Shown in pieces: positions 6,575-55,319 of a stretch of 64,000 nt of DNA. The DNA is from Candidatus Magasanikbacteria bacterium GW2011_GWC2_37_14 (GTDB lineage: Bacteria; Patescibacteriota; Patescibacteriia; Magasanikbacterales; UBA922), in assembly GCA_000990355.1 (NCBI GenBank), contig LBSX01000003.1:21489-85488 (forward strand). Reading direction: 5' to 3'. Position 1 is the stretch's first letter. Every line of letters starts with the position of its first letter. Under the pieces are notes generated by a model. That model was not told where the DNA came from and did no database searches. It was given only the letters and a program-made list of their open reading frames with translations. The position numbers and the translations under genes were made by a program.

Positions 6575-7209
6575 GCCCTGTAGGGGCATCAGAATAATAG
6601 CCAGGCACTTTAGTGCCTGGAAAGAGATTATTATTTATAATTTAGTCCCGTAGGGACGGCACAAATATGCCAAATACCTTTTCTAATTTATTATTTCACA
6701 TTGTTTTTAGTACCAAAGAAAGAAGAAAATTATTGTCAAAAGAATTGAGAGTTCGATTATTCAAATACATGTCTGGAATAGCCGACAAAAGTAATTTTAA
6801 AATAATAAAATTAGGCGGAATTGATGATCATATCCATTTATTATTTTCATTGAGTCCTGATATGCCTGTAGCAAAAGCAGTACAATTAATAAAAGGCAAC
6901 TCATCTAAATGGTTACGTGAAAATTTTACAGATTTGGATATATTTTCTTGGCAAGTAGGTTATGGCGCGTTTACTGTCAGTAAATCACAGATTGATATTG
7001 TTCAAAAATATATTGCTAACCAAGAAGAGCATCATAAAAAAATGAGTTTTGAAGAAGAATTCGTTGAATTATTAAAAAGGAACAAAATTGATTTTGATTA
7101 TAAATATTTATTTTAGAAATGTGTCGTCCCTATTGGGACTTTTTAAAATAATAAATACATTTTCCAGGCAATAAATTGCCTGGCTACTATCTATCGTCCC
7201 TAACGGGAC
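6575..7209 (+). mobile_element. IS200/IS605-family (or REP/RAYT-like) unit: Y1 HUH transposase gene with three hairpin palindromes on each side
   Basis: Left hairpins: gccctgtaggggc (6575-6587), ccaggcac-ttta-gtgcctgg (6601-6620), gtcccgtagggac (6645-6657). Right hairpins: gtccctattgggac (7126-7139), ccaggcaa-taaa-ttgcctgg (7164-7183), gtccctaacgggac (7196-7209). The middle hairpin carries a compensatory double change (c..g to a..t) that preserves pairing. Confidence 0.6.
6667..7116 (+). CDS. tnpA: IS200-like Y1 (HUH) tyrosine transposase TnpA/RAYT
   Basis: HUH motif HIHLL; N-terminus LLFHIVFSTKERRKLL (cf. YHVVFCTKYRR); catalytic Tyr region SWQVGYGAFTVSKSQIDIVQKYIANQEEHH; 149 aa. Confidence 0.75.
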   Translation: MPNTFSNLLFHIVFSTKERRKLLSKELRVRLFKYMSGIADKSNFKIIKLGGIDDHIHLLFSLSPDMPVAKAVQLIKGNSSKWLRENFTDLDIFSWQVGYGAFTVSKSQIDIVQKYIANQEEHHKKMSFEEEFVELLKRNKIDFDYKYLF

Positions 7210-8907: not shown

Positions 8908-9152
8908 TATTGACAGTTTATAATTTTTATGTTATTTTTATTATGAATTACATCGCCAACGGAGGCCGTTGAGGATGAGAAAACGCAGCTGGAAGGGACG
9001 GGCTAATTCGTTGTTGGTTGACTGCTGCAACCAACACGGGGTGTCAACTTTCACTTGCAAAGAATTGCCCCCGCGGTTGCGGAAAAAAAGGAGGCAATGG
9101 CTCGCGCAGTGTGCTCGAGGCGCTAAACAACAGGATACGAGGAGGGAGGAAC

Positions 9153-9335
9153 ATGGGTCGCGGTGAACAGACCAACAAGAACCGTCGCAAGAAGGCACAG
9201 CGAGCCAAGAAGGCTCGCGAGGAACGTCGGAAGACGGGTACGCTCGGGCCGAGTAAGACTGGCACCAAGGTACGCCCATGCCCTGGGTGTGGGCAGATCG
9301 GTGGTAGCCATAAGTGGAACTGTCGTTATCGTTAG
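9153..9335 (+). CDS. small basic zinc-ribbon-like protein (60 aa) in a GC-rich island; start supported by GAGGAGGGAGG 5 nt upstream
   Basis: Sequence MGRGEQTNKNRRKKAQRAKKAREERRKT...RPCPGCGQIGGSHKWNC, with a strong SD. The upstream 210 nt are GC-rich with hairpins (gttggttg-N8-caaccaac, ccgcggttgcgg). Confidence 0.45.
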   Translation: MGRGEQTNKNRRKKAQRAKKAREERRKTGTLGPSKTGTKVRPCPGCGQIGGSHKWNCRYR

Positions 9336-9417
9336 GAGGGCAAAATGCGACAAGCACGACCACCACCTCCCTGTGTATCATAGGGGAAGGTGGAATGATA
9401 AATGGCCACAATGCATC

Positions 9418-9452
9418 ACCTTCTTTCTTTTTAAGAATATTAAAAAGAAAGA
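9418..9452 (+). terminator. 13-bp perfect hairpin (cttctttcttttt / aaaaagaaagaag) followed by a G/T-rich tract; putative terminator of the small island gene
   Basis: Perfect palindrome seen in sequence; it is followed by gtggttttttgtttttg. A similar G/T tract (ggagttttttgtttttttg) follows the next island gene. Confidence 0.4.
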
Positions 9453-9554
9453 AGGGAGAATTTGCATTGTGGTTTTTTGTTTTTGACAAGTGACTTTTTA
9501 TATGGTTAAATTATTTTAAGATTTTGCCCCACAACGGGGTTTGGGAGAATTGCT

Positions 9555-10157
9555 ATGAAGTCTGTGCTGCCTCAGAAAAGACTTGCGCCAGGAACAGGAG
9601 CTATTCTTGCTGACGGCAACTGGCGTTGCCGTTGCTTGAGCAAGAACGTTCATCACGACCTGTTCGGCTACTGCAAGCTCTGCCGTACTACCAAGCCCCC
9701 TCCGGGGAAAGTGAAAGGAGGCATTGGCACAGCCTTGGATCACTGGCGTTGGCAGTGCTCGTGCACCAACAAGGTGCACGACTGGGACATAACCAAGTGT
9801 CCTATCTGCACCTACACCAGGCCGAAAGGTCGTCCGGAGGAAGTGAAGCAGTTCGGTCAATGGCATACCCACTACACTTGGCGCTGCAAGTGTGGCAAGA
9901 AACACTGCCAGCACAATGCCTCGGTGCCTAGTTGTCAGCACTGCCACTGCTGTCGTCCCGACGAATCCAGCCAGCCACCGGAGAAGATAAAACAAGAAGA
10001 GCCTCGCGCTAGTTCGACGTCCAAGAATCAGTGGCTGGATCGCTACTCTTGGGAGTGTGCCCAAGGGCACGTAAACAGCTCTTCAGAACCAGAGTGTTGG
10101 TGCCACAGAGGGGGAAGTCGTCCTCCTTTGGCCGACAGGCCAGATCCACAGTTCTAG
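9555..10157 (+). CDS. Cys-rich protein with four tandem RanBP2-like zinc-finger motifs (W-x-C-x-C-x3-N-x7-8-C-x2-C), GC-rich
   Basis: Repeats GNWRCRCLSKNVHHDLFGYCKLC / DHWRWQCSCTNKVHDWDITKCPIC / YTWRCKCGKKHCQHNASVPSCQHC / YSWECAQGHVNSSSEPECWC. The periodic Cys pattern argues against a spurious ORF. Confidence 0.5.
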   Translation: MKSVLPQKRLAPGTGAILADGNWRCRCLSKNVHHDLFGYCKLCRTTKPPPGKVKGGIGTALDHWRWQCSCTNKVHDWDITKCPICTYTRPKGRPEEVKQFGQWHTHYTWRCKCGKKHCQHNASVPSCQHCHCCRPDESSQPPEKIKQEEPRASSTSKNQWLDRYSWECAQGHVNSSSEPECWCHRGGSRPPLADRPDPQF

Positions 10158-10323
10158 CAGCTGAGAAGGATGGTCAACATGCATAAGTCACGTTCTCCGC
10201 CCTAATCTGGGGGAGGGCGCGCAAGAAACTTCAACGTGTCGCCTTCTTTATTTCTCAATTTGGGAAGTAGAGAAGGGAGATTTTACACGTTGGAGTTTTT
10301 TGTTTTTTTGTTGTACACTAATA

Positions 10324-10394
10324 CTGTCATGCTGAATTTATTTCAGCATCTCTCTTAAAATAAAAAAGATCCTGAAATAAATTCAGGATGACAG
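10324..10394. repeat. repeat family A: double hairpin tgtcatgctgaa-ttta-tttcagcat ... atcctgaa-ataaa-ttcaggatgaca
   Basis: Five copies or arrays in the window (also 43150, 43312, 51286, 51788), always intergenic and immediately upstream of a gene start. Confidence 0.7.
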
Positions 10395-10400
10395 ATTGTT

Positions 10401-25837: not shown

Positions 25838-26194
25838 ATGAGTGATATTGAAAAATGGAGAAAATTAGATGTCTGGTTGAAAGCACATAAATTAGTTGTT
25901 GAAGTTTATAGAATTACAGAAATTTTTCCTAATCATGAACTATATTGTTTGGTCTCGCAGATAAGACGCGCTGCTATTTCTATAGTTGCTAATATTGTGG
26001 AAGGTACAAAAAGGCAAACGTCAAAAGATAGAGTACATTTTTATGTAATGTCAGACACTTCTCTTGAAGAGTTGAAATATTACTTCATTTTAAGTTATAA
26101 TCTACATTATATAGATTTGCAGAAAGCTAGCCTTCTAACTGAGAAGGCTAGAACTGTTGGCCGAATGCTGAACGGACTAATTAAGTGTCAATAA
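25838..26194 (+). CDS. four-helix-bundle protein (23S rRNA-IVS / S23 ribosomal protein family)
   Basis: LDVWLKAHKLVVEVYRITEIFPNHELYCLVSQIRRAAISIVANIVEG; family signature. Confidence 0.7.
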   Translation: MSDIEKWRKLDVWLKAHKLVVEVYRITEIFPNHELYCLVSQIRRAAISIVANIVEGTKRQTSKDRVHFYVMSDTSLEELKYYFILSYNLHYIDLQKASLLTEKARTVGRMLNGLIKCQ

Positions 26195-26234: not shown

Positions 26235-27386
26235 ATGGAAATACATGAGTTGGTACAAAGTTTAGTAGAATTAAATAAAAAACTTGTAAATTTACAAGTG
26301 ATGTTAAAGTTATCGGAAAAAGAAAAAGAAATAAAAATTTTAGCAGAAAAAATGAATGAAAATGGTTTTTGGAACAACCAAGAAGAAGCAACCAAAGTAA
26401 GCAAACGTTTAAGTTATTTGCAAAATGAACAAACAGAATGGAAAAAATTATCTAGTCAAGTTGTTGATTTGTTGGAAATGGCCAAACTAGATGAAGAAGA
26501 TAAAGATGTAAATTTACGTGAGGAATTGGAAAAACAATACAAAATTATAAATAAAGCAATCAATCATTTGGAATTTAATACTCTAATGAGTGAAAAATAT
26601 GATGACCACAATGCGATTGTGGCCATTCACTCGGGAAGTGGTGGAACCGAAGCACAAGACTGGGCCGAAATATTACTTCGCATGTATTTAAAATATTCAG
26701 AAAACAAGAATTGGAAAATAATGATGATTGATGAAACACGCGGGCAAGAGGCGGGAATAAAATCAGCAGTGTTTAGAGTTGAAGGTGACCCTTCGGCTAG
26801 TGCTCCCCTCGGCGTGAGCTCGGGCCGAACGCAGGGCGGGTTTGTTTATGGACATTTAAAATCCGAACACGGTACTCATCGCTTAGTTAGAATTTCTCCA
26901 TTTGACGCAGAAAAAATGCGTCATACTTCTTTTGCTTTAGTAGAAGTAATTCCGGAGCTGGAGGAAAGCGAAAGTTTACAAATTGATGCTAAAGATTTGC
27001 GTGTAGATACTTTTATGTCTGGTGGTAAGGGTGGACAATCTGTTAATACTACTTATTCCGCAGTACGTATAGTTCATATTCCCACAGGTACCACTGTACA
27101 ATGTCAAAATGAACGCAGTCAACAACAAAACAAAGAAATGGCATTAAAAATTTTACAATCCAAACTACAAAAAATAAAAGATGAGGAAGAAGATAAAGAA
27201 AAACAAAAATTACGTGGAGAATACAAGAGCCCAGAGTGGGGTAGTCAAATTCGTTCTTATGTACTCCACCCATATCACCTAGTAAAAGATTTGCGTACAG
27301 ATTATGAGACGACCGATGACAAAAGTGTTTTGGAAGGGAATTTGGATGAGTTTGTGGAGAGTTATTTAAGGTGGAAAAAGAAATAA
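26235..27386 (+). CDS. prfB: peptide chain release factor 2, encoded without the programmed +1 frameshift
   Basis: SPF tripeptide (RISPFD), GGQ (SGGKGGQSVN), single uninterrupted ORF. Contains an in-frame GC-rich insertion (D PSASAPLGVSSGRTQGG F) at 26788-26840. Confidence 0.85.
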   Translation: MEIHELVQSLVELNKKLVNLQVMLKLSEKEKEIKILAEKMNENGFWNNQEEATKVSKRLSYLQNEQTEWKKLSSQVVDLLEMAKLDEEDKDVNLREELEKQYKIINKAINHLEFNTLMSEKYDDHNAIVAIHSGSGGTEAQDWAEILLRMYLKYSENKNWKIMMIDETRGQEAGIKSAVFRVEGDPSASAPLGVSSGRTQGGFVYGHLKSEHGTHRLVRISPFDAEKMRHTSFALVEVIPELEESESLQIDAKDLRVDTFMSGGKGGQSVNTTYSAVRIVHIPTGTTVQCQNERSQQQNKEMALKILQSKLQKIKDEEEDKEKQKLRGEYKSPEWGSQIRSYVLHPYHLVKDLRTDYETTDDKSVLEGNLDEFVESYLRWKKK

Positions 27387-27387
27387 A

Positions 27388-27500
27388 ATTTTCAATGATC
27401 AATTTACAATTTACAATAAATTATCAATTTTCAATTACCATTAGTGATTGAAAATTGTGTCATTGTAAATTTATTGAAAATTGAAAAATGAAAATTGGTA
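27388..27500. repeat. repeat family C: ~110-bp AT-rich palindromic element (arms tcaatttacaatttacaataaatt... / ...aatttattgtaaattg...)
   Basis: Copies at 27388, 31151, 49590/50005 (split by a gene) and 55201; all intergenic and just upstream of gene starts. Confidence 0.65.
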
Positions 27501-27503
27501 ATT

Positions 27504-28196
27504 ATGAACATTATTGAAAAAGAAAAAGCATTGGATTACTTGCGATCTGGTAAAATAATTATTTTTCCTACCGAAACCTCGTACGGTCTTGGTTGTGATG
27601 CGACCAATCAACAAGCAGTAGATAAAATTTTTAAAATAAAAGGCCGTCGTGGTGACAAACCTCTTTTAGTAATAGTGCCGACAATAGAAATGGCCAAAGA
27701 ATATTTGGAGTGGAATGATTTGTTGGAAAAGATTGCGACAAAATATTGGTTTACCCGCCGAAGCCCTAGCGAAGGCGGGCCTGGTCCACTGACTGTGGTG
27801 GGCATGTCATTGCGAGGAAGCCGGTTCGCATCGGCTGACGAAGCAATCCCAATGGGATCGCCACACCCCTTACTGCGTGGGGTTCGCGATGACAGACTCG
27901 CCAGTGGCGTGGTGTCTAAAGATAAAACTATTGCCGTTCGTGTTACTAATGCCGAGATACCAAAATATTTATCCGAACAATTAGGCAGGCCAGTAGTAGC
28001 GACTTCGGCAAATTTGGCAGATCTAGGTGATGTTTACAGTGGCGAAGAGCTAATAAAAATGTATGAAGGACGAGAAATTCAACCAGATGCAATTATTAAT
28101 GCTGGAATTTTACCATCAAATCCACCAACGACGATTGTAAGTGTAGTTGGGGGAGAGTTGAAAGTATTACGGCAGGGTGAAGTGAAAGTCGTTTAA
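27504..28196 (+). CDS. tsaC: L-threonylcarbamoyladenylate synthase TsaC (YrdC/Sua5 family); ATG at 27504 preferred over the TTG at 27495
   Basis: LRSGKIIIFPTETSYGLGCDATN...KIFKIKGRRGDKPLLV...GPGPLTVV; carries the in-frame palindromic insertion. Confidence 0.75.
   Translation: MNIIEKEKALDYLRSGKIIIFPTETSYGLGCDATNQQAVDKIFKIKGRRGDKPLLVIVPTIEMAKEYLEWNDLLEKIATKYWFTRRSPSEGGPGPLTVVGMSLRGSRFASADEAIPMGSPHPLLRGVRDDRLASGVVSKDKTIAVRVTNAEIPKYLSEQLGRPVVATSANLADLGDVYSGEELIKMYEGREIQPDAIINAGILPSNPPTTIVSVVGGELKVLRQGEVKVV
27806..27893. repeat. in-frame GC-rich palindromic element (gtcattgcgaggaagccggttcgcatcggctgacgaagcaatccca ... cgcgatgac) inside tsaC
   Basis: Near-identical to 31577-31681; encodes MSLRGSRFASADEAIPMGSPHPLLRGVRDD between the conserved PGPLTVV and IAVRV segments. 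Confidence 0.65.
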
Positions 28197-28199
28197 CTG

Positions 28200-28320
28200 A
28201 ATCCTCCTGGAGTTTATCCCGTACCAGGTTACGGGGAAGGAGGAGTACCCCGACTGCGACGTCGGGGGCAGAAGGCGTTCGTTTTCCTCCCCTTTATAAG
28301 GGGAGGATTAAGGAGGGGTA
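28200..28320. repeat. cluster of GC-rich hairpins (ccccgactgcgacgtcgggg; cctcccc-tttataa-ggggagg) upstream of the DUF559 gene
   Basis: Palindromes seen directly; mirrored by a similar cluster downstream of the gene. Confidence 0.5.
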
Positions 28321-28322
28321 GT

Positions 28323-28688
28323 ATGACAGATTTATACAACAAAAAAGAATATACATTCATTAGACGTAAACTAAGAAAAGAAACACCTAAAGGGGAACAA
28401 ATACTCTGGCAGAAATTAAGACGTAAAACATTGGGTTGTAAATTCCGTCGTCAGTATGGTATTGGTAAGTATGTAGTGGACTTTTACTGTCAAGAATTAC
28501 GTTTAGCAATAGAAGTAGATGGTATTACGCACGAAGATAAAGCAGACTACGAAAAAGAAAGAAATCAATTTTTAAAATGTAAAAACATAAAAGTATTACA
28601 TTTTCGTAGTGAAGAAATATTTTACAATTTAGATAACCTTGTTGAAGGCTTGTATAATCTCTGTGAAGAACTTAAAACTAAACTTTAA
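28323..28688 (+). CDS. DUF559 (Vsr-like endonuclease fold) protein
   Basis: ILWQKLRRKTLGCKFRRQYGIGKYVVDFYCQELRLAIEVDGITH matches the DUF559 core; strong SD AAGGAGGGG. Confidence 0.7.
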   Translation: MTDLYNKKEYTFIRRKLRKETPKGEQILWQKLRRKTLGCKFRRQYGIGKYVVDFYCQELRLAIEVDGITHEDKADYEKERNQFLKCKNIKVLHFRSEEIFYNLDNLVEGLYNLCEELKTKL

Positions 28689-28689
28689 A

Positions 28690-28795
28690 CCTTACCCCCA
28701 CCTAGCCTCCCCCTTATAAAGGGGGAGGAAACCACCCCGTCTCCGACCTGCGAAGGTCGGAGACACCCCTCCTTACGAAGGAGGGGTCAGACACT
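28690..28795. repeat. cluster of GC-rich hairpins (cctccccc-ttataaa-gggggagg; gtctccgacc-tgcgaa-ggtcggagac; cccctcctt-acgaa-ggaggggt) downstream of the DUF559 gene
   Basis: Three perfect or near-perfect palindromes at 28706-28728, 28739-28764 and 28766-28786. Confidence 0.5.
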
Positions 28796-30040: not shown

Positions 30041-31151
30041 AAACATATATCTAATAATTTTTTTGGTTATTTCATTAATGGCTGGATTTTTGATAACTTG
30101 GCAGTGGCTAGAAACAAGCACTGCTCAGTCATTGGCCATATTATCTTTAGAAGAAATCAAGTCACCACTCCGAGCCAAGGCAGATTTGAAAACTGTAAAA
30201 GCATTATATTTAACAGCTTATTCTGCTGGTAACCCAAAGAAATTAGCTGAGATTATTGATTTAATAAACAAAACCGAGTTGAATGCGGTAGTAATTGATA
30301 TAAAAGATTATTCGGGAAAAGTATTATACAATAGTAATTTGGAATGGGTAAAAAGGTTTGAAGCTAGAGAAAACCGTTTGGGAAATGTACGGGAAGTAAT
30401 TCAAAAATTACATGATAATAAAATATATGTAATTGCTCGTCTTACTGTTTTTCAAGACCCACTATTGGCAAGTAAAAAACCTGAGTGGGCCATAAAATCC
30501 AAAAACGATGGATTGTGGCAAGATAACAAAGGTTTAAATTGGGTAGATCCTACCCGTGTAGAAGTTTGGAATTATAATTTGGCCATTGCCAAAGAAGCTA
30601 TTGGTTTTGGTTTTGATGAAATTAATTTTGATTATGTGCGTTTTCCTTCGGATGGAGATATGAGTTTGGTAGTTTATAATAATGGCGATGAACCAAAATA
30701 TCAAACAATGAAGCGTTTTTATACTTTTTTACGTGAGCATCTAAATAATTATCCAGCTTGGATTTCACTAGATATGTTTGGTTATGTTATGGAACGTACT
30801 GATGATTTGCGTATTGGTCAACGCTTGGTAGACGCGGTAGATTCGGCAGATTTTATTTGTCCAATGATGTACCCTTCACACTATTCTAGAAATTCTTTTG
30901 GGGTAGAAAAACCCGCCGAAATTCCTGGAATAATTATTGATAATGGTATGAAAAAGGGAATGCCGACTTTTGTTAATAAGCGCGCCAAGGTACGTCCTTG
31001 GTTACAAGCTTTTGATTTGGGGGCAGTGTATAGCGATGGCATAAAGATTCGCGAGCAAATTGATGCAGTAGAAAAATATAGTGATGCGGGGTGGCTTTTG
31101 TGGAATGCCAGTAATAGATATACGTCAGCTGGATTAAAGATAGAGTGGTAA
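30021..31151 (+). CDS. putative TIM-barrel glycoside-hydrolase-like protein (GHL/DUF4015-like) with an N-terminal anchor
   Basis: N-terminal TM; NAVVIDIKDYSGKV..., GLNWVDP, FGFDEINFDYVRFP are reminiscent of GHL15-type proteins. This is recall-based and the confidence is low. Confidence 0.35.
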   Translation: MISALSKNIYLIIFLVISLMAGFLITWQWLETSTAQSLAILSLEEIKSPLRAKADLKTVKALYLTAYSAGNPKKLAEIIDLINKTELNAVVIDIKDYSGKVLYNSNLEWVKRFEARENRLGNVREVIQKLHDNKIYVIARLTVFQDPLLASKKPEWAIKSKNDGLWQDNKGLNWVDPTRVEVWNYNLAIAKEAIGFGFDEINFDYVRFPSDGDMSLVVYNNGDEPKYQTMKRFYTFLREHLNNYPAWISLDMFGYVMERTDDLRIGQRLVDAVDSADFICPMMYPSHYSRNSFGVEKPAEIPGIIIDNGMKKGMPTFVNKRAKVRPWLQAFDLGAVYSDGIKIREQIDAVEKYSDAGWLLWNASNRYTSAGLKIEW

Positions 31152-31260
31152 TTTTCAATAATCAATTTACAATTTACAACAAATTTTCATTTAGATAATT
31201 TTCAATGTCAATGATAATTGAAAATTGGTTATTGATTGAAAATTGTGAATTGTAAATTGA
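31151..31260. repeat. repeat family C copy
   Basis: taattttcaataatcaatttacaatttacaacaaatt ... aattgtgaattgtaaattga. Confidence 0.65.
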
Positions 31261-31277
31261 TAATTATTTATTATTTT

Positions 31278-32264
31278 ATGCGTCTTACTCCAACAAAATT
31301 AAAAGAGCTTTGTGAGCAATATGATCTTTCTCCAAGCAAAAAATATGGTCAAAATTTTTTGATTCAAGAACATCCAATTAAAAAAATGTTTGAAGCGGCA
31401 GAAATAAATAAAAACGACCTAGTAGTTGAAATTGGACCAGGTTTTGGAATATTAACTTTTGCTTTGGCAGAAAAAGCCAAAAAAGTAATTGCTTTTGAAA
31501 TTGAAAAAAAGATTGAAAATTATTGGCAAGAAAATAAACCAGAAAATGTGGAAATTATTTGGGGGAATGCGCTCATGTCATTGCGAGGAAGCCGATTCGC
31601 ATCGGCTGACGAAGCAATCCCAAGTTTAGTGAAGAGTGCAAAGGGATTGCCACACCTCGCTCGGGCGGGGTTCGCAATGACAGGTTACAAAGTAATCGCC
31701 AATGTACCGTATCAAATTACTTCGGATTTAATTAGAACTTTATTGGAATTAGAAAATAAGCCTGAGAGCATTACGATTATGGTGCAAAAAGAAGTTGCTG
31801 AGCGTATTTGTGCCCAAGCTGGAGAAATGAGTTTGTTGGCAATTTCAGTACAATATTATGGCGAAGTAAAAACTGTGGCAATTGTAACACGAGGAAATTT
31901 TTGGCCAGAACCAAAGGTGGATTCGGCAATATTGCACATTAAAGTGAGACAACAACCCCCTTGTTCCCCCTTTATTAAGGGGGAAACCAACAAACCCTGT
32001 TTAATTCCCCCCTTGGTAAAGGGGGGTAGGGGGGATATTGACCAAGAACAATTTTTTAAGATTGTTAAAACTGGTTTTTCACAAAAGCGTAAACAATTGT
32101 GGAGCAATCTAAGCAAAGGTCTTAAAATAGAGGGTGAAATGGTAAAAAAAGTGCTTTTGGAAGTGGTTGGCAATGATAAAGTAAGAGCAGAGGAATTGGG
32201 AGTAGAGGAGTGGAAAGAAATTACCACGCGGTTATCCACAACGTCAAAAGAAAAATTGCTGTAA
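31278..32264 (+). CDS. rsmA: 16S rRNA (adenine1518/1519-N6)-dimethyltransferase RsmA/KsgA with two in-frame GC-rich insertions
   Basis: YGQNFL, VVEIGPGFGILT, ANVPYQITS, PKVDSAIL, FSQKRKQL. Confidence 0.8.
   Translation: MRLTPTKLKELCEQYDLSPSKKYGQNFLIQEHPIKKMFEAAEINKNDLVVEIGPGFGILTFALAEKAKKVIAFEIEKKIENYWQENKPENVEIIWGNALMSLRGSRFASADEAIPSLVKSAKGLPHLARAGFAMTGYKVIANVPYQITSDLIRTLLELENKPESITIMVQKEVAERICAQAGEMSLLAISVQYYGEVKTVAIVTRGNFWPEPKVDSAILHIKVRQQPPCSPFIKGETNKPCLIPPLVKGGRGDIDQEQFFKIVKTGFSQKRKQLWSNLSKGLKIEGEMVKKVLLEVVGNDKVRAEELGVEEWKEITTRLSTTSKEKLL
31577..31681. repeat. in-frame 105-bp GC-rich palindromic element (gtcattgcgaggaagccgattcgc ... ggttcgcaatgac) inside rsmA
   Basis: Terminal inverted repeats gtcattgcg / cgcaatgac; the length is exactly 35 codons; inserted between the GNAL and ANVPY segments, where homologues have about 15-20 aa. 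Confidence 0.7.
31955..32036. repeat. second in-frame GC-rich insertion in rsmA containing hairpins ccccc-tttatta-aggggg and cccccc-ttggtaaa-gggggg
   Basis: Encodes PPCSPFIKGETNKPCLIPPLVKGGRG; the hairpin motif resembles those flanking the DUF559 gene. Confidence 0.5.
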
Positions 32265-42196: not shown

Positions 42197-42309
42197 GCTT
42201 TGAATAAAATTATTTTCATTCAAAGTGTGAGTGGTGGAGAGGCCGACCATCCACACCTCCGCGTATCGAGGACGCAGAGAGAGAGGAAGGGAGAGAACGA
42301 GACCGGAGG

Positions 42310-42888
42310 TCACGGGCGCTGGAGGACGATGGGGGTGTCGCCGATGTAGGAGCCCCAGAGCTTGAGCTTGATGACTTCTTCGAGCGAGGCGAAGATCTTC
42401 GGGTTGTTGAGTGGCCCTTGGAGGACCTCCCATTCGCCCTTCTTCGCGAAGAAGTAGACACCGAAGTTCTCGGTGCTGGCGTAGCAGTAGCTGGGGTCCT
42501 TCTCGTAGTCGACGAACTGGTTGATGGTGTAGACGTTGCCGTCGTCATCCACCCAGTTGCCTTCTCGCGACGCCAGCGGCGCGCAGTCGGTCGTCGTGAC
42601 CTCGTCGGTGAGCACCTCTTCGGCGCTCGTGGCGTCCGGCGAGTCGTCCGGGGGGTTGGCGATGCAGGAGTCGCCGCTCTTGATCATGTGCCCGGGGCAC
42701 GTGAACGGGAGCTGGTTGTCCTGCGAGACGTCGTCCTCGAGAATCGAGGTGTCGCCGCCGATGGTGTCGGCGGTGTTGATGACGTCGCCGTCGTAGCTGT
42801 CGCCACCACCACAGGCGGGGACGAAGAGGGCCACCATGAGAGTGACCCAGAAGGAGAGAACCAGCGAGTTGCGGGTCGTCGTGAGCAT
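42310..42888 (-). CDS. GC-rich (~60%) lipoprotein; start at the internal ATG with SD AGGAGG
   Basis: MLTTTRNSLVLSFWVTLMVALFVPAC: signal plus lipobox Cys; SD taggaggcgcacc immediately before the ATG; base composition is atypical for the window. Confidence 0.55.
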   Translation of the reverse strand: MLTTTRNSLVLSFWVTLMVALFVPACGGGDSYDGDVINTADTIGGDTSILEDDVSQDNQLPFTCPGHMIKSGDSCIANPPDDSPDATSAEEVLTDEVTTTDCAPLASREGNWVDDDGNVYTINQFVDYEKDPSYCYASTENFGVYFFAKKGEWEVLQGPLNNPKIFASLEEVIKLKLWGSYIGDTPIVLQRP

Positions 42889-43149
42889 GGTGCGCCTCCT
42901 AGCGCGTTGTTGTTGCCCAGAATAGGGATTTAGTAAATCCACATTCTGGGCAAGCACTAGCAAGGCATAACCATGGGCCTCTTAATTCCACCACACCCTA
43001 AACCACAAGGGTTCAGGGTAAAATTTTTAAAGAGCATTATCCATTTATAGTATAGAACATTAAAACCTTGTCTGTCAAGACAAGGGAAACGATTATAGCA
43101 TATTTTAGCCTTTTTGTCAAGGGTATGCGGTGGATAAACTGTGCACCGT

Positions 43150-43227
43150 TGTCATGCTGAACTCGTTTCAGCATCCCTTACTTATTTAATATTGCCAGGG
43201 GATCCTGAAATAAATTCAGGATGACAG
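43150..43227. repeat. repeat family A copy
   Basis: tgtcatgctgaactcgtttcagcat ... gatcctgaaataaattcaggatgaca. Confidence 0.7.
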
Positions 43228-43311
43228 ACAATGTGGATATCTATATTTTTTCTTTAAACAAACAAAAAAATGTGTTATAATGTTTGTAGTTTAGCATGTA
43301 GTGTAAATCAA

Positions 43312-43406
43312 CTGTCATGCTGAATGTAATTGTCATGCTGAACTTGTTTCAGCATCCCGTGAGATCCTGAAATAAATTCAGGATGACAGCCAAGTTCAGG
43401 ATGACA
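43312..43406. repeat. repeat family A copy with extra half-sites (ctgtcatgctgaa; ttcaggatgaca x2)
   Basis: Immediately upstream of ORF 43420, whose ATG lies in a degenerate half-site (gtcATGctcaaattc). Confidence 0.7.
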
Positions 43407-43419
43407 TTTAAAAAAAGTC

Positions 43420-48648: not shown

Positions 48649-49585
48649 TTTTTGGTTTAATTATCAGTTACAAAATTACCACGAAGTTGTTGATTCTTTT
48701 GGTTTGTTAGAAAACAAACGTTTGGAAATTATTTCAAAAATTGGCAAGTTGGGTGAAAGGATTTTTTTATATGTTGATTTTATTTCTAAAAAAATATTAC
48801 AACACCAAATTAAACCCGAAGTAAGTTTTGAAACCAATCTTATTAAATATTTGGATTTAGGATTATTAAATAATTTTATTAACGATCCTTTAAACAAAGA
48901 AAATCGCGATTTGTTTTCCGAACAGCTTTTGCTGGTTTATTCGGCTTTGGGCGGGGCTTTGCCTATAAATGCTTATTCGGTAGAAGAAATGTTACAAATC
49001 AAATCAGCCGAATATTTATATTATGATGATAATATTTTTGTGGGTACTTTACGTTATATTTTTAGTGATTTGGATGTATTTTATAAATATTTACCAAGTA
49101 TTAGCGACTATTTGTTTAGAGATGGCCAAAATTCTATTAAACAAAACTTTGATTGGCACACAGCTTTTATTTATTCGGCTTTAATTAATTTTTGCTGGTC
49201 AAGTTTTTGGTTTTTAAAAAGTGAAGAACAAGAAAATTTGCTTAAAAATTATTTTTATACGGCCATTGTTGCCGGAGTGCCGGTAAAAATTATTTTAGAT
49301 CGTTTTTTGGCTGTGGGCACTGCAGAAGAAAAAGTACGTTGTCAACAATTGTTTGCCAATGGTCTTGAAAATAATTTAGAAGAAGTTCCTTTGAATGGAG
49401 ATTTTACCGAGTGGAAAAAATTATTAGCTATTATCCGTGGTTTTTCGGTGCGAATTAAGGGTTCAAATTCTGGTTTTGAACAAGAAGAATTTTTAAAGGA
49501 ATTTTATCAAAATCAACCAGGGAGAGACGTTTATCGCGGTTGGCTACGAGAAGTTTTGAATATAGTGTTTAGTTTGGAAAAGTAG
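48611..49585 (+). CDS. hypothetical protein, paralogue of 47302..48648
   Basis: See previous entry; overlaps it by 38 nt (the start may be the ATG at 48632). Confidence 0.5.
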   Translation: MKNHLKNMELKNNFWFNYQLQNYHEVVDSFGLLENKRLEIISKIGKLGERIFLYVDFISKKILQHQIKPEVSFETNLIKYLDLGLLNNFINDPLNKENRDLFSEQLLLVYSALGGALPINAYSVEEMLQIKSAEYLYYDDNIFVGTLRYIFSDLDVFYKYLPSISDYLFRDGQNSIKQNFDWHTAFIYSALINFCWSSFWFLKSEEQENLLKNYFYTAIVAGVPVKIILDRFLAVGTAEEKVRCQQLFANGLENNLEEVPLNGDFTEWKKLLAIIRGFSVRIKGSNSGFEQEEFLKEFYQNQPGRDVYRGWLREVLNIVFSLEK

Positions 49586-49589
49586 TACA

Positions 49590-50062
49590 ATTATCAGTTT
49601 TCAATTTACAATTTACAATAAATTTTCAATTAAATAATTTTCAATGAATAAAAGTTCTAACAACTATGATTTGGAAGAACGTACAGCAGTATTTAGTGGA
49701 GAGATAATTAAATTTTGTAGAAGTCTAAAAGAAGATAATGTTACTAGACCGTTGATAAATCAGTTAGTGCGTTCTGGAACTAGTATCGGGGCAAATTATT
49801 GTGAAGCTAATAACGCGAGTTCAAAAAAGGATTTTCAAAATAAAATATTTATTTGTAAAAAAGAGGCACAAGAGACCAAATATTGGTTAAGGACACTTTC
49901 TACCTGTTGTCCAGAAGAAGTAGAAAATTTAAGGAAACTTTGGAAGGAAACACAAGAATTATTGATGATATTTCAAAAAATTGTGAATACTTTAAGAAGT
50001 AAATGATAATTGATAAATTGAAAATTTATTGTAAATTGTAAAATGGTTATTGTAAATTAAAC
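49590..50062. repeat. family C palindromic element split by a four-helix-bundle gene (left arm 49590-49646, right arm 50005-50062)
   Basis: The arms match the empty copies C1, C2 and C4; the 4HB ATG sits in the conserved centre aattttcaATG. Confidence 0.6.
49644..50006 (+). CDS. four-helix-bundle protein (23S rRNA-IVS protein family)
   Basis: LVRSGTSIGANYCEANNASSKKDFQNKIFICKKEAQETKYWLRTL. Confidence 0.7.
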   Translation: MNKSSNNYDLEERTAVFSGEIIKFCRSLKEDNVTRPLINQLVRSGTSIGANYCEANNASSKKDFQNKIFICKKEAQETKYWLRTLSTCCPEEVENLRKLWKETQELLMIFQKIVNTLRSK

Positions 50063-51285: not shown

Positions 51286-51342
51286 TGTCATGCTGAACTA
51301 GTTTCAGCATCCCAGGAGATCCTGAAATAAATTCAGGATGAC
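51286..51342. repeat. repeat family A copy
   Basis: ctgtcatgctgaactagtttcagcatcccaggagatcctgaaataaattcaggatgaca. Confidence 0.65.
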
Positions 51343-51350
51343 AAAACAAT

Positions 51351-51787: not shown

Positions 51788-51925
51788 TGTCATCCTGAAT
51801 TTATTTCAGGATCTCCTGTTAGCATTAAAAGTGTTGGGGATGCTGAAATGGTACTTGTCCTGAATTTATTTCAGGATTCAGCATGACAATTGCATTCAGG
51901 ATGACAACCAAGTTCAGCATGACAA
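51788..51925. repeat. array of family A half-sites (tgtcatcctgaa-tttat-ttcaggat; atgctgaa; gtcctgaatttatttcaggat; ttcagcatgaca x2; ttcaggatgaca)
   Basis: Six or more copies of the 12-nt half-site TGTCATSCTGAA or its reverse complement within 140 bp, upstream of the VirB4 genes. Confidence 0.65.
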
Positions 51926-51959
51926 ATAGAACGTTTTGTGTTAAAATGACAAGTGTAAT

Positions 51960-54623: not shown

Positions 54624-55199
54624 ATGTATATGCTTACACTACGTCAAAGAATTTTTGCTTACATTGGTATTTTTGTTGGTTTGGTGGTGGTTTTTTTGTT
54701 GGCTTATTTATTTATCAACAATAGTGGCGGGGTACGTGATTATGTAACAGAAAAAGGCACAAAAATTTTAAATATTAAACCCACAGGAGAGCAAACACCG
54801 GTGGCTACTACTACTCCAAACGTGGTAAAAGCCGACCCGCTTACTCCCGAGATTTATACCAAACAATTGTCACGAATTTTTGTCGAGCGTTTTAGTAGTT
54901 ATTCCAACCAAAATGATAATCTTCATATTAGCGAAGTAATTCCACTTTGTACCGAAACAATGGTTGCTTGGCTAAAGACACAAAATTTAACTAGTAGTTT
55001 GGATTATGCGGGGGTAACTACCAGAGTAATTGCCAGTAATGTTAGTAAAATTACTGCTACCTCGGCTACCGTGGAAATTCAAGTACAACAAGAAATAGAA
55101 AATAAAGCGGGAAAACAAGTGGTACAAAAAGATGGGCGTGTGGAACTTTTAAAAGTAGGCAATGATTGGAAAATAGATGGGTTGTATTGGCAAAAATAG
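54624..55199 (+). CDS. membrane-anchored hypothetical protein (start chosen downstream of the repeat)
   Basis: N-terminal TM IFAYIGIFVGLVVVFLLAYLFI; last gene of the T4SS-like cluster. Confidence 0.45.
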   Translation: MYMLTLRQRIFAYIGIFVGLVVVFLLAYLFINNSGGVRDYVTEKGTKILNIKPTGEQTPVATTTPNVVKADPLTPEIYTKQLSRIFVERFSSYSNQNDNLHISEVIPLCTETMVAWLKTQNLTSSLDYAGVTTRVIASNVSKITATSATVEIQVQQEIENKAGKQVVQKDGRVELLKVGNDWKIDGLYWQK

Positions 55200-55200
55200 T

Positions 55201-55312
55201 TTAATTTTCAGTAATCAATTTTCAATTTACAAAAAATTTTCAATTAAATAATTTTCAATGTTATTGATAATTGAACATTGTAAATTTATTGAAAATTGTG
55301 AATTGTAAATTG
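55201..55312. repeat. repeat family C copy
   Basis: tttaattttcagtaatcaattttcaatttacaaaaaatt ... aattgtgaattgtaaattgg. Confidence 0.65.
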
Positions 55313-55319
55313 GCAATTT

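Follow-up and report, generated by a model that had tools for sequence, protein, structure and literature searches.

A G/C-rich repeat with three arms flanks the DUF559 gene on both sides in a 64-kb stretch of a contig from Candidatus Magasanikbacteria (Candidate Phyla Radiation), hereafter the window, and units of the same architecture lie in the same orientation beside DUF559 genes in many phyla. The window gene, which encodes a protein of the Vsr-like PD-(D/E)xK nuclease fold family, is located between a Sua5/YrdC gene and a gene for a major facilitator superfamily (MFS) transporter, and a related pair of units is present, in frame, within the nearby rsmA gene. Judged by their sequences, the hairpins are copies of a dispersed G/C-rich three-arm repeat of the class that includes the BoxC/PIT/TMECO elements of enterobacteria and cyanobacteria, and a single strand with this order of parts could fold back twice into a purine-motif intramolecular triplex. 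The repeat class itself is known, and its host and arm sequences here are new; the oriented association of the repeat with DUF559 across phyla appears to be unreported. With moderate confidence, we read the nuclease and the triplex-type repeat as a selfish partnership, in which DUF559 would be a structure- or sequence-specific nuclease.

Each unit consists, in order, of a pyrimidine arm, a loop, a purine arm, about 3 nt and a second purine arm, which is the mirror (the reverse, not the complement) of the purine arm next to it. Units with this third arm on the 3' side, as read on the plus strand, are designated U units, and those with the third arm on the 5' side D units. A scan of the 64 kb detected exactly four three-arm units (Table 1), against a mean of 0.025 in 40 dinucleotide-preserving shuffles of the window. 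The DUF559 gene has a U unit upstream and a D unit downstream, and both third arms face the gene. The upstream third arm, GGAGGGG, is followed by TAGT and the ATG, ending 4 nt before the start codon, and also serves as a Shine-Dalgarno-like GGAGG. On the minus strand, the downstream unit reads CCTCCCCC-TTTATAA-GGGGGAGG-CTA-GGTGGGGG, and in its third arm, GGTGGGGG, a T faces an A.T pair. All four window units have the order of parts of class II intrastrand triplex motif repeats, and the antiparallel mirror and triplet rule of that class holds for GGGGAGG/GGAGGGG and for GGGGGAGG/GGTGGGGG. When folded as single-stranded DNA and compared with shuffles, the flanks of the DUF559 gene are far more stable (z = -4.2 upstream and z = -7.3 downstream), and the rsmA stretch folds only modestly better than its shuffles (z = -2.25).

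A first-pass annotation, made from the sequence of the window, had described three palindromes in these places, CCTCCCC-TTTATAA-GGGGAGG (28286-28306), CCTCCCCC-TTATAAA-GGGGGAGG (28706-28728) and CCCCC-TTTATTAA-GGGGG (31966-31983). All three are found exactly there, and there is a fourth beyond those it listed, CCCCCC-TTGGTAAA-GGGGGG (32007-32026). Its description of plain hairpins is right as far as the palindromes go and misses the third arm, which makes the units three-armed and of triplex type. The companion GC hairpins that it placed around the DUF559 gene are likewise present, and they lie outside the part that is common to related DUF559 loci. A hairpin nearly identical to the one at 28248-28267 is found upstream of gene-less U units in two metagenome contigs (L099 and L110). 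The unit scan found no third arm at the neighboring hairpin of the same arm type (28766-28786).

The association between repeat and gene was assessed at 80 DUF559 loci in species-representative genomes, which include Patescibacteria, Cyanobacteria, Ignavibacteria, Chlorobi, Bacteroidota, Nitrospirota, Gammaproteobacteria, Chloroflexota, Myxococcota and others. Absence of the hairpins from other DUF559 loci was the outcome that the first-pass annotation had named as speaking against it; a pyrimidine-loop-purine hairpin is in fact found no more than 100 nt from the gene at 65 of the 80 (48 upstream, 46 downstream, 29 both), against a background, more than 300 nt from DUF559, of 0.11 per kb (54 in 488,656 nt). 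The arms of the units at these loci are mostly 7-8 nt long, the loop is usually TT-NNN-AA, and the arm spacer is 3 nt in 151 of 217 units. For 141 third arms, taken from the 80 loci and the window, a mirror of the adjacent arm fits better in 116 cases and a direct copy in 7, with 18 ties. The third base facing a G is G in 96% of cases. Facing an A, it is A 192 times, T 74 times, G 4 times and C twice, and the counts become A 114, T 30, G 3 and C 2, with T present in 38 loci, when duplicate arm pairs are removed. This preference for A or T facing A follows the purine-motif triplex rule (G*G.C, and A*A.T or T*A.T), and ordinary mutation bias would not produce it.

The orientation of the units is preserved as well. 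The nearest upstream unit is of the U type, with its third arm toward the gene, at 32 loci and of the D type at 8, and the nearest downstream unit is of the D type, again with its third arm toward the gene, at 31 loci and of the U type at 9. Close unit pairs are D-U in 32 cases, with a gap of mostly 11-17 nt, versus U-D in 6, and gene-sized gaps between units are enclosed by U and D in 30. Together, the orientation and pair counts identify (D-U) gene (D-U) as the recurrent chain, and the insert in rsmA is the gene-less doublet form. Homologues with read-through ends encode the repeat motif as part of the protein, for example PLPNPPLIKGRE, PPCSPPLSKGGR and ISPLSKGGLRGV. Apart from those at DUF559 genes, two inward-facing U..D pairs are present in about 490 kb of flanks. 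At one locus (L021, 3242-3957), an inward-facing U..D pair encloses a 148-aa open reading frame (ORF) beside the DUF559 gene; this ORF has no Pfam match and may represent other cargo.

Relatives of the window gene, with proteins that are 70-80% identical and with the same ends, are found in other contexts. Three genomic contexts are represented: the window, a site beside a PilC/GspF-like gene (L090) and sites beside other genes (L087 and L091). In a four-way DNA alignment, similarity spans TTTCCTCCCC to GGGGGAGGAAA(C), which are the outer feet of the hairpins, and the flanks are unrelated. The D unit is identical at 39 of 40 nt to the unit that follows a 70%-identical gene in L087, and the U unit differs from those of L090 and L091 at one or two positions, with loops and spacers kept. 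The single third-arm position that varies in this alignment alternates between A and T (CCCCCACC versus CCCCCTCC). The same clade of genes thus keeps the same constrained ends in several contexts.

The occupant of a given slot also changes. In the syntenic locus L081, the MFS neighbor is 85% and RsmA 82% identical to the respective window counterpart, and the DUF559 protein encoded in the same slot is 44% identical, with an N-terminus resembling that of another allele; one allele has been replaced by another at this site. In a further relative, yrdC is directly followed by the next gene, without DUF559 between them. The L081 contig ends 7 nt 5' of the DUF559 start, where the upstream unit would be expected, and many DUF559 homologues are located on contigs of about 1 kb, which suggests that assemblies break at the three-arm repeats. 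In L082 (3001-3318), a DUF559 gene is found within the suf operon, between sufD and sufS, and the same placement recurs in 24 contigs from many samples. The possibility that an identical protein occurs in several contexts was considered for the protein P0011 and rejected, as this protein is found in one context only, within the suf operon.

Three-arm units are, in addition, a conserved dispersed family in their own right. In a contig scan, the exact 33-nt U unit was detected in 13 metagenome stretches that represent about 10 distinct contexts, and the copies that are not next to a DUF559 gene are gene-less singles, clusters or doublets. In L107, a D unit and a U unit separated by 16 nt form a doublet, and both are almost identical to the two ends of the window gene.

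The hairpin pair in frame inside rsmA, also proposed in the first-pass annotation, is borne out by the sequence, the unit scan and the alignments. Its two hairpins are separated by a 21-nt spacer, the third arms are outermost, and the doublet reads through as PPCSPFIKGETNKPCLIPPLVKGGRGD. RsmA is 328 aa long in this genome, versus about 275-290 aa in most homologues, and an alignment with 15 homologues reveals two extra segments, in agreement with the earlier suggestion that the gene carries two unrelated insertion families. The doublet falls in the variable linker that joins the methyltransferase domain to the C-terminal domain, a region in which most homologues have fewer residues. At this spot the closest relative (L081) carries only one unit, of the D type and with other arms, and another relative encodes 'NPPLGRGG' at the linker position; the linker is therefore a recurrent landing place. 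The second, unrelated insertion (approximately 31575-31690, 'SLRGSRFASADEAIP...') recurs in yrdC at approximately 27800-27900. This second family, in frame in both yrdC (27748-27916) and rsmA (31575-31690), has the ends GTCATTGCGAGG...CGCAATGAC and is translated as 'MSLRGSRFASADEAIP...', and in yrdC a CCCGCC...GGCGGG hairpin directly precedes it. In another patescibacterial locus (L002, 5042-6436, minus strand), a large enzyme ORF, which from its appearance we take to be phosphomutase-like, contains two in-frame three-arm units, TPSPLQGEGEGGV and IPPPLQGGGEKGV, and tolerance of in-frame units is therefore not peculiar to rsmA. In-frame insertion of such repeats into essential genes of reduced genomes is thereby documented.

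The BoxC/PIT/TMECO elements were reportedly described by Bachellier et al. in the 1990s and by Hoyne et al. in 2000. The BoxC repeats of E. coli were re-described as a 'potential intrastrand triplex' (PIT) and then as TMECO, with the consensus 5'-CCCTCNCCC-N3-6-GGGNGAGGG-N3-GGGNGAGGG and 9-nt arms, and a TMECO oligonucleotide forms a stable triplex by circular dichroism and nuclear magnetic resonance (Holder et al. 2015, PMC4666352). The same paper reports thousands of copies in enterobacteria, with the highest counts in Enterobacter asburiae and none in Salmonella, as well as many G/C-rich motifs in Microcystis, Anabaena and Nostoc. TMECO elements also occur in inverted 'palindromic' configurations, and are always intergenic; their loci are linked to genome rearrangements and are more rearranged in E. 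coli, and neither a transposase nor an integrase, nor any other mobility function, was seen near them (PMC4666352). RNA reportedly does not form purine-motif triplexes (PMC4666352). Neither endonucleases nor ycjD are mentioned in Holder et al. 2015 (PMC4666352), and no link between gene and repeat was found in the literature on DUF559, ycjD, BoxC/TMECO and mirror-repeat or triplex DNA with endonucleases, the coverage of which was incomplete.

The window units share with these elements the succession of C-rich arm, loop, G-rich arm, 3-nt loop and second G-rich arm, along with their G/C-rich, dispersed and multi-copy character and their occurrence as inverted doublets. They differ in having arms of 5-8 nt and of the CCTCCCC type instead of the 9-nt CCCTCNCCC consensus (the arms are CCTCCCC(C), 7-8 nt, at the DUF559 gene and C5-6 in rsmA), in their host, and in including copies in frame in a coding region. 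The TMECO consensus itself is present at the DUF559 loci of Enterobacter and E. coli. By their sequence, the window units are members of the triplex-repeat class and not of the E. coli sequence family.

In E. coli K-12, the DUF559 gene is ycjD. A degenerate unit overlies its stop codon, a canonical TMECO is located about 170 nt downstream, and the region also contains a duplicated fragment of a DUF559 3' end. An Enterobacter asburiae-type genome has a DUF559 homologue in a different context, between hemW and yggN, where a D unit has the stop codon in its loop and is followed, after a gap of 10 nt, by a canonical TMECO, so that the two make up a D-U doublet. Close YcjD homologues with a named source are from Escherichia, Shigella, Enterobacter, Kluyvera, Klebsiella and relatives, with no Salmonella among the best 120, a distribution that matches the one reported for TMECO (PMC4666352). 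The ycjD gene is present in 3377 of 5426 E. coli genomes, and in a sample of 60, confounded by phylogroup, genomes without it have fewer near-identical TMECO copies. In the fabI-sapF interval of E. coli (L088 and L089), about 38% of complete genomes have, in place of ycjD and its TMECO, an efflux operon of the resistance-nodulation-division (RND)/MFS type under TetR regulation, and the breakpoint on the fabI side is located just beyond the TMECO.

The window DUF559 protein matches Pfam PF04480 with E = 7e-29 and 100.3 bits (gathering cut-off 20.6). The motif E64-x-D66-G-x3-H70 is conserved, and E25, D53, E64, D66 and H70 are invariant in an alignment of 37 DUF559 sequences. The family profile matches PDB 3HRL, a DUF559 structure with no assigned function, at 3.6e-27, and its further matches are I-Bth0305I, a homing endonuclease, in the catalytic domain (2.8e-5), and PvuRts1I restriction enzymes; published classifications group DUF559 with Vsr in the PD-(D/E)xK superfamily (PMC3424549, PMC1189080). 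For three close pairs with estimable dS, the ratio of nonsynonymous to synonymous substitution rates (dN/dS) is 0.08-0.16, read with synonymous sites saturated (proportion of synonymous differences, pS, 0.57-0.77), and the gene is therefore under purifying selection.

In the proposed partnership, the DUF559 nuclease would recognize or cut the folded or extruded repeat, and recombination with other copies would then mend the resulting breaks, so that the unit-gene-unit module would be copied or moved. The same break-driven recombination would spread gene-less units and doublets. The doublet in rsmA would be one such gene-less copy, which would owe its survival to having landed, in frame, in a linker that tolerates it. 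The D-U-gene-D-U chain could have arisen when a U-gene-D module was inserted into the spacer of an existing doublet or, equally fitting, by gene loss between flanking doublets. By virtue of break repair between copies, the partnership would explain the spread of gene-less units, the exchange of alleles, the inward-facing brackets and the constraint on the ends. We infer triplex formation in the cell, the action of DUF559 on the repeat and the chemistry of movement. A broader proposal, which is tentative and perhaps somewhat less probable than its opposite, is that short DUF559 proteins are structure-specific nucleases that recognize three-arm intrastrand triplex DNA and are the missing agent by which BoxC/TMECO-type repeats spread and persist in bacteria ranging from the Candidate Phyla Radiation to E. 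coli, and that the module is a new kind of mobile element.

Several observations weigh against the partnership. Gene-less units outnumber gene-linked ones, and DUF559 is next to the exact 33-nt U unit in only 2 of the approximately 10 contexts, where the alleles that follow share 49% and 45% identity with the window protein. Because of these gene-less and divergent-allele units, identical ends leave it unproven that gene and ends always travel together; the conserved ends could reflect the repeat family and not descent shared with the gene. No target-site duplication was found in the alignment of four related loci and no empty site was recovered among loci with DNA on file; the hemW-yggN slot of E. 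coli holds yggM-ansB and REP (repetitive extragenic palindromic) repeats. The doublet in rsmA has shorter arms and different loops than the units at the DUF559 gene, and units that flank a single gene do not resemble each other significantly more than units taken from separate loci do (0.81 versus 0.77 +/- 0.03). A PD-(D/E)xK nuclease by itself cannot perform transposition, and literature searches turned up no nuclease activity or substrate for any DUF559 protein. The comparison of TMECO counts in E. coli is confounded by phylogeny, and in vivo work found no TMECO effect on polymerases, transcription or conjugation (summarised in PMC4666352). The compact selfish unit envisaged in the first-pass annotation is partly supported. 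In its favor, the arrangement is not unique to this locus, is oriented and is found in three contexts with the same two end units; against it, gene-less units are common and the 33-nt units precede alleles of 45-49% identity, which makes it one reading only. The core of the idea stands, with corrections.

It is also conceivable, if rather unlikely, that no enzymatic partnership exists, and that the repeats are recombination hot spots at which DUF559 genes with an unrelated job, such as repair or restriction-like defense, come to lie or are exchanged through repeat-mediated recombination. Repeat loci are more rearranged in E. coli (PMC4666352), the swap of the ycjD region for an efflux operon has a boundary that adjoins a TMECO, and units of identical sequence are found both where the gene is missing and next to divergent DUF559 alleles. 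A hot spot of this kind does not readily account for an association this strong, with strict orientation on either side of a single 120-aa gene family in many phyla, when the flanks contain just two other inward-facing pairs (one with the 148-aa ORF). Nor does it account for a third arm that is often positioned as the ribosome-binding site of the gene, and DUF559 lacks a convincing match to known defense systems, with weak PADLOC hits.

The position of the third arm might instead indicate that the units are expression signals of DUF559, with a 5' leader hairpin plus ribosome-binding site and a 3' stabilizer or terminator, and that the rsmA copies are unrelated linker expansions. The third arm is indeed about 2-14 nt 5' of the start codon, with GGAGG, in the window and in approximately 13 of the 32 loci with a U-type upstream unit, and the downstream unit follows or overlaps the DUF559 stop codon. 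This explanation is nonetheless improbable, given that the motif also appears in inverted form 3' of the gene, in doublets that lack a gene, in clusters and within coding sequences, that a terminator scan was negative for these hairpins and no T-tract is present, and that an RNA hairpin needs no mirror symmetry with A-to-T tolerance, purine-motif triplexes being reportedly absent from RNA (PMC4666352). Chance G/C-rich palindromes without family relationship in an A/T-rich genome, which might be suspected from the short arms (5-8 nt) and from there being two loci only in 64 kb, are excluded for practical purposes by the shuffles, by the recurrence of the architecture at 65 of 80 independent DUF559 loci and by the exact 33-nt unit in 13 metagenome contigs.

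A number of other identities were considered for the repeat and the gene and rejected. True terminal repeats are inconsistent with the similarity values given above, as it is the architecture that is common and not the arm sequence. A miniature inverted-repeat transposable element (MITE) derived by internal deletion would not have the outward third arms of the gene-less doublets (D-U 32 versus U-D 6). A transposon or MITE with terminal inverted repeats would fit the inverted ends (TTTCCTCCCC...GGGGGAGGAAA) but not the lack of a target-site duplication at four loci. Intrinsic terminators were rejected since the terminator scan calls none of the units and no T-tract follows them. Phage carriage of DUF559 was rejected on the basis of 6 weak matches among 2.9 million viral contigs, and identity as a defense system on the basis of the weak PADLOC hits.

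Table 1. DUF559 gene, three-arm units, associated hairpins and rsmA in the window
Feature	Coordinates	Strand	Basis
DUF559 gene, 121 aa, Vsr-like PD-(D/E)xK nuclease fold family	28323..28688	+	Pfam PF04480
Stretch common to related DUF559 loci, ~450 bp, TTTCCTCCCC ... GGGGGAGGAAAC	28283..28732	+	four-way DNA alignment
Upstream U-type unit	28285..28318	+	sequence, unit scan, exact mirror arm
Upstream unit, pyrimidine arm CCTCCCC	28286-28292		
Upstream unit, loop TTTATAA	28293-28299		
Upstream unit, purine arm GGGGAGG	28300-28306		
Upstream unit, spacer ATTAA	28307-28311		
Upstream unit, mirror purine arm GGAGGGG	28312-28318		
Downstream D-type unit	28695..28728	-	sequence, unit scan, L087 comparison
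Downstream unit (plus strand), third arm CCCCCACC, followed by spacer TAG	28695-28702		
Downstream unit (plus strand), pyrimidine arm CCTCCCCC	28706-28713		
Downstream unit (plus strand), loop TTATAAA	28714-28720		
Downstream unit (plus strand), purine arm GGGGGAGG	28721-28728		
Companion hairpin CCCCGAC-TGCGAC-GTCGGGG	28248..28267	.	different family; outside shared stretch
Companion partner hairpin GTCTCCGACC-TGCGAA-GGTCGGAGAC	28739-28764	.	outside shared stretch
Hairpin of same arm type without third arm, CCCCTCC-TTACGAA-GGAGGGG	28766..28786	.	hairpin scan; outside shared stretch
rsmA, 16S rRNA dimethyladenosine transferase	31278..32264	+	Pfam PF00398
Gene-less D-U doublet in rsmA, in frame	31956..32034	+	sequence, unit scan, protein and DNA alignments
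Doublet, D-type unit CCCCC-TTGTT-CCCCC-TTTATTAA-GGGGG	31956-31985		
Doublet, U-type unit CCCCCC-TTGGTAAA-GGGGGG-TA-GGGGGG	32007-32034		

Other elements are present in the window. The release factor 2 gene prfB (26235-27386) has an in-frame G/C-rich stretch (26780-26846) encoding GDPSASAPLGVSSGRTQGG, which resembles one more small insertion of palindromic type, again within an essential gene. An IS200-like Y1 transposase gene (6667-7116; PF01797, E = 1.3e-32) is accompanied by GTCCC-loop-GGGAC hairpins at 6645-6657, 7126-7139 and 7196-7209. Another small gene family is represented at 25838-26194 by a '23S rRNA intervening sequence protein' of the four-helix-bundle family PF05635. An A/T-rich intergenic repeat family, AATTTACAATTTACAA ... 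TTGTAAATTG, is found at 27366-27504, 31129-31266, 49568-50059 and 55182-55319, as inverted pairs between genes, including directly upstream of rsmA and yrdC. A hairpin family with the form TGTCATCCTGAA-loop-TTCAGGATGACA, along with the variant TGTCATGCTGAA, has several copies, some in tandem, at 10368-10395, 43150-43413, 51286-51345 and 51788-51931. Two islands (9000-10250 and 42200-42900) have 52-55% G+C in a genome of about 36% G+C, which may indicate foreign DNA or a dense clustering of G/C-rich elements.

The possible significance of the partnership comes from the two families that it joins. BoxC/PIT/TMECO elements have been known since the 1990s, with triplex folding and a link to rearrangements, yet without a function or a mobilizing activity being found, and DUF559, a very large family for which a structure has been solved, has no known role. 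The association, which extends from a genome of the Candidate Phyla Radiation to ycjD of E. coli, provides a concrete hypothesis for both orphans. If the hypothesis is true, the unit-gene-unit module would be a mobile element whose hallmarks are triplex-forming ends and a PD-(D/E)xK nuclease in place of a transposase. DUF559 would also be the first natural nuclease linked to the recognition of triplex DNA, and the pair would be the second case, independent of REP and its associated tyrosine transposases (RAYT), of a repeat family kept by a dedicated enzyme.

Among known systems, free-standing homing endonucleases of the EDxHD type (I-Bth0305I, PDB 3R3P; PMC3239194) resemble DUF559 in being small nucleases of the same fold family (profile E = 2.8e-5), and in the insertion of the gene between conserved genes (sufD and sufS), the presence of different alleles in one slot and mosaic sequences. 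In contrast to them, DUF559 is not located in an intron or intein, is rare in viral contigs and is flanked by structured repeats, and neither a defined site nor an empty allele of the homing type was found for it. The analogy with IS200/IS605 elements drawn in the first-pass annotation, of which the Y1 gene of the window is an example, holds for the architecture, a small gene with hairpins on both sides, and single-strand DNA structure probably matters in both. It does not extend to the enzyme, which is a Vsr-like PD-(D/E)xK nuclease (PF04480) and not a Y1 transposase (PF01797), to the hairpin family, which is different, or to target duplication and the known transposition chemistry, which are absent from DUF559. 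Rickettsia palindromic elements (RPE) are in-frame palindromic repeats in housekeeping genes that are tolerated as extra peptide segments; they are unrelated in sequence to the repeats of the window and have no third arm, and they are not known to have an associated nuclease gene.

The closest parallel in arrangement is with REP/REPIN-RAYT systems, in which a short structured repeat is likewise dispersed, often as inverted doublets, one small gene is bracketed by inverted copies, and gene-less copies far outnumber the gene. The bracket and the inverted doublets that characterize a REPtron are both found at DUF559 loci, and its HUH/Y1 enzyme (PF01797) is not, its place being taken by the Vsr-like PD-(D/E)xK nuclease. 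The repeat described here also differs in having a third, mirror arm, and the DUF559 gene has seemingly been moved or exchanged between contexts. The DUF559 system is REP-RAYT-like in architecture and not a member of that group. Its likeness to REP-RAYT is at least as great as that to a classical transposon, and a REP-RAYT-like repeat family with an associated nuclease gene fits the observations at least as well as a selfish unit.

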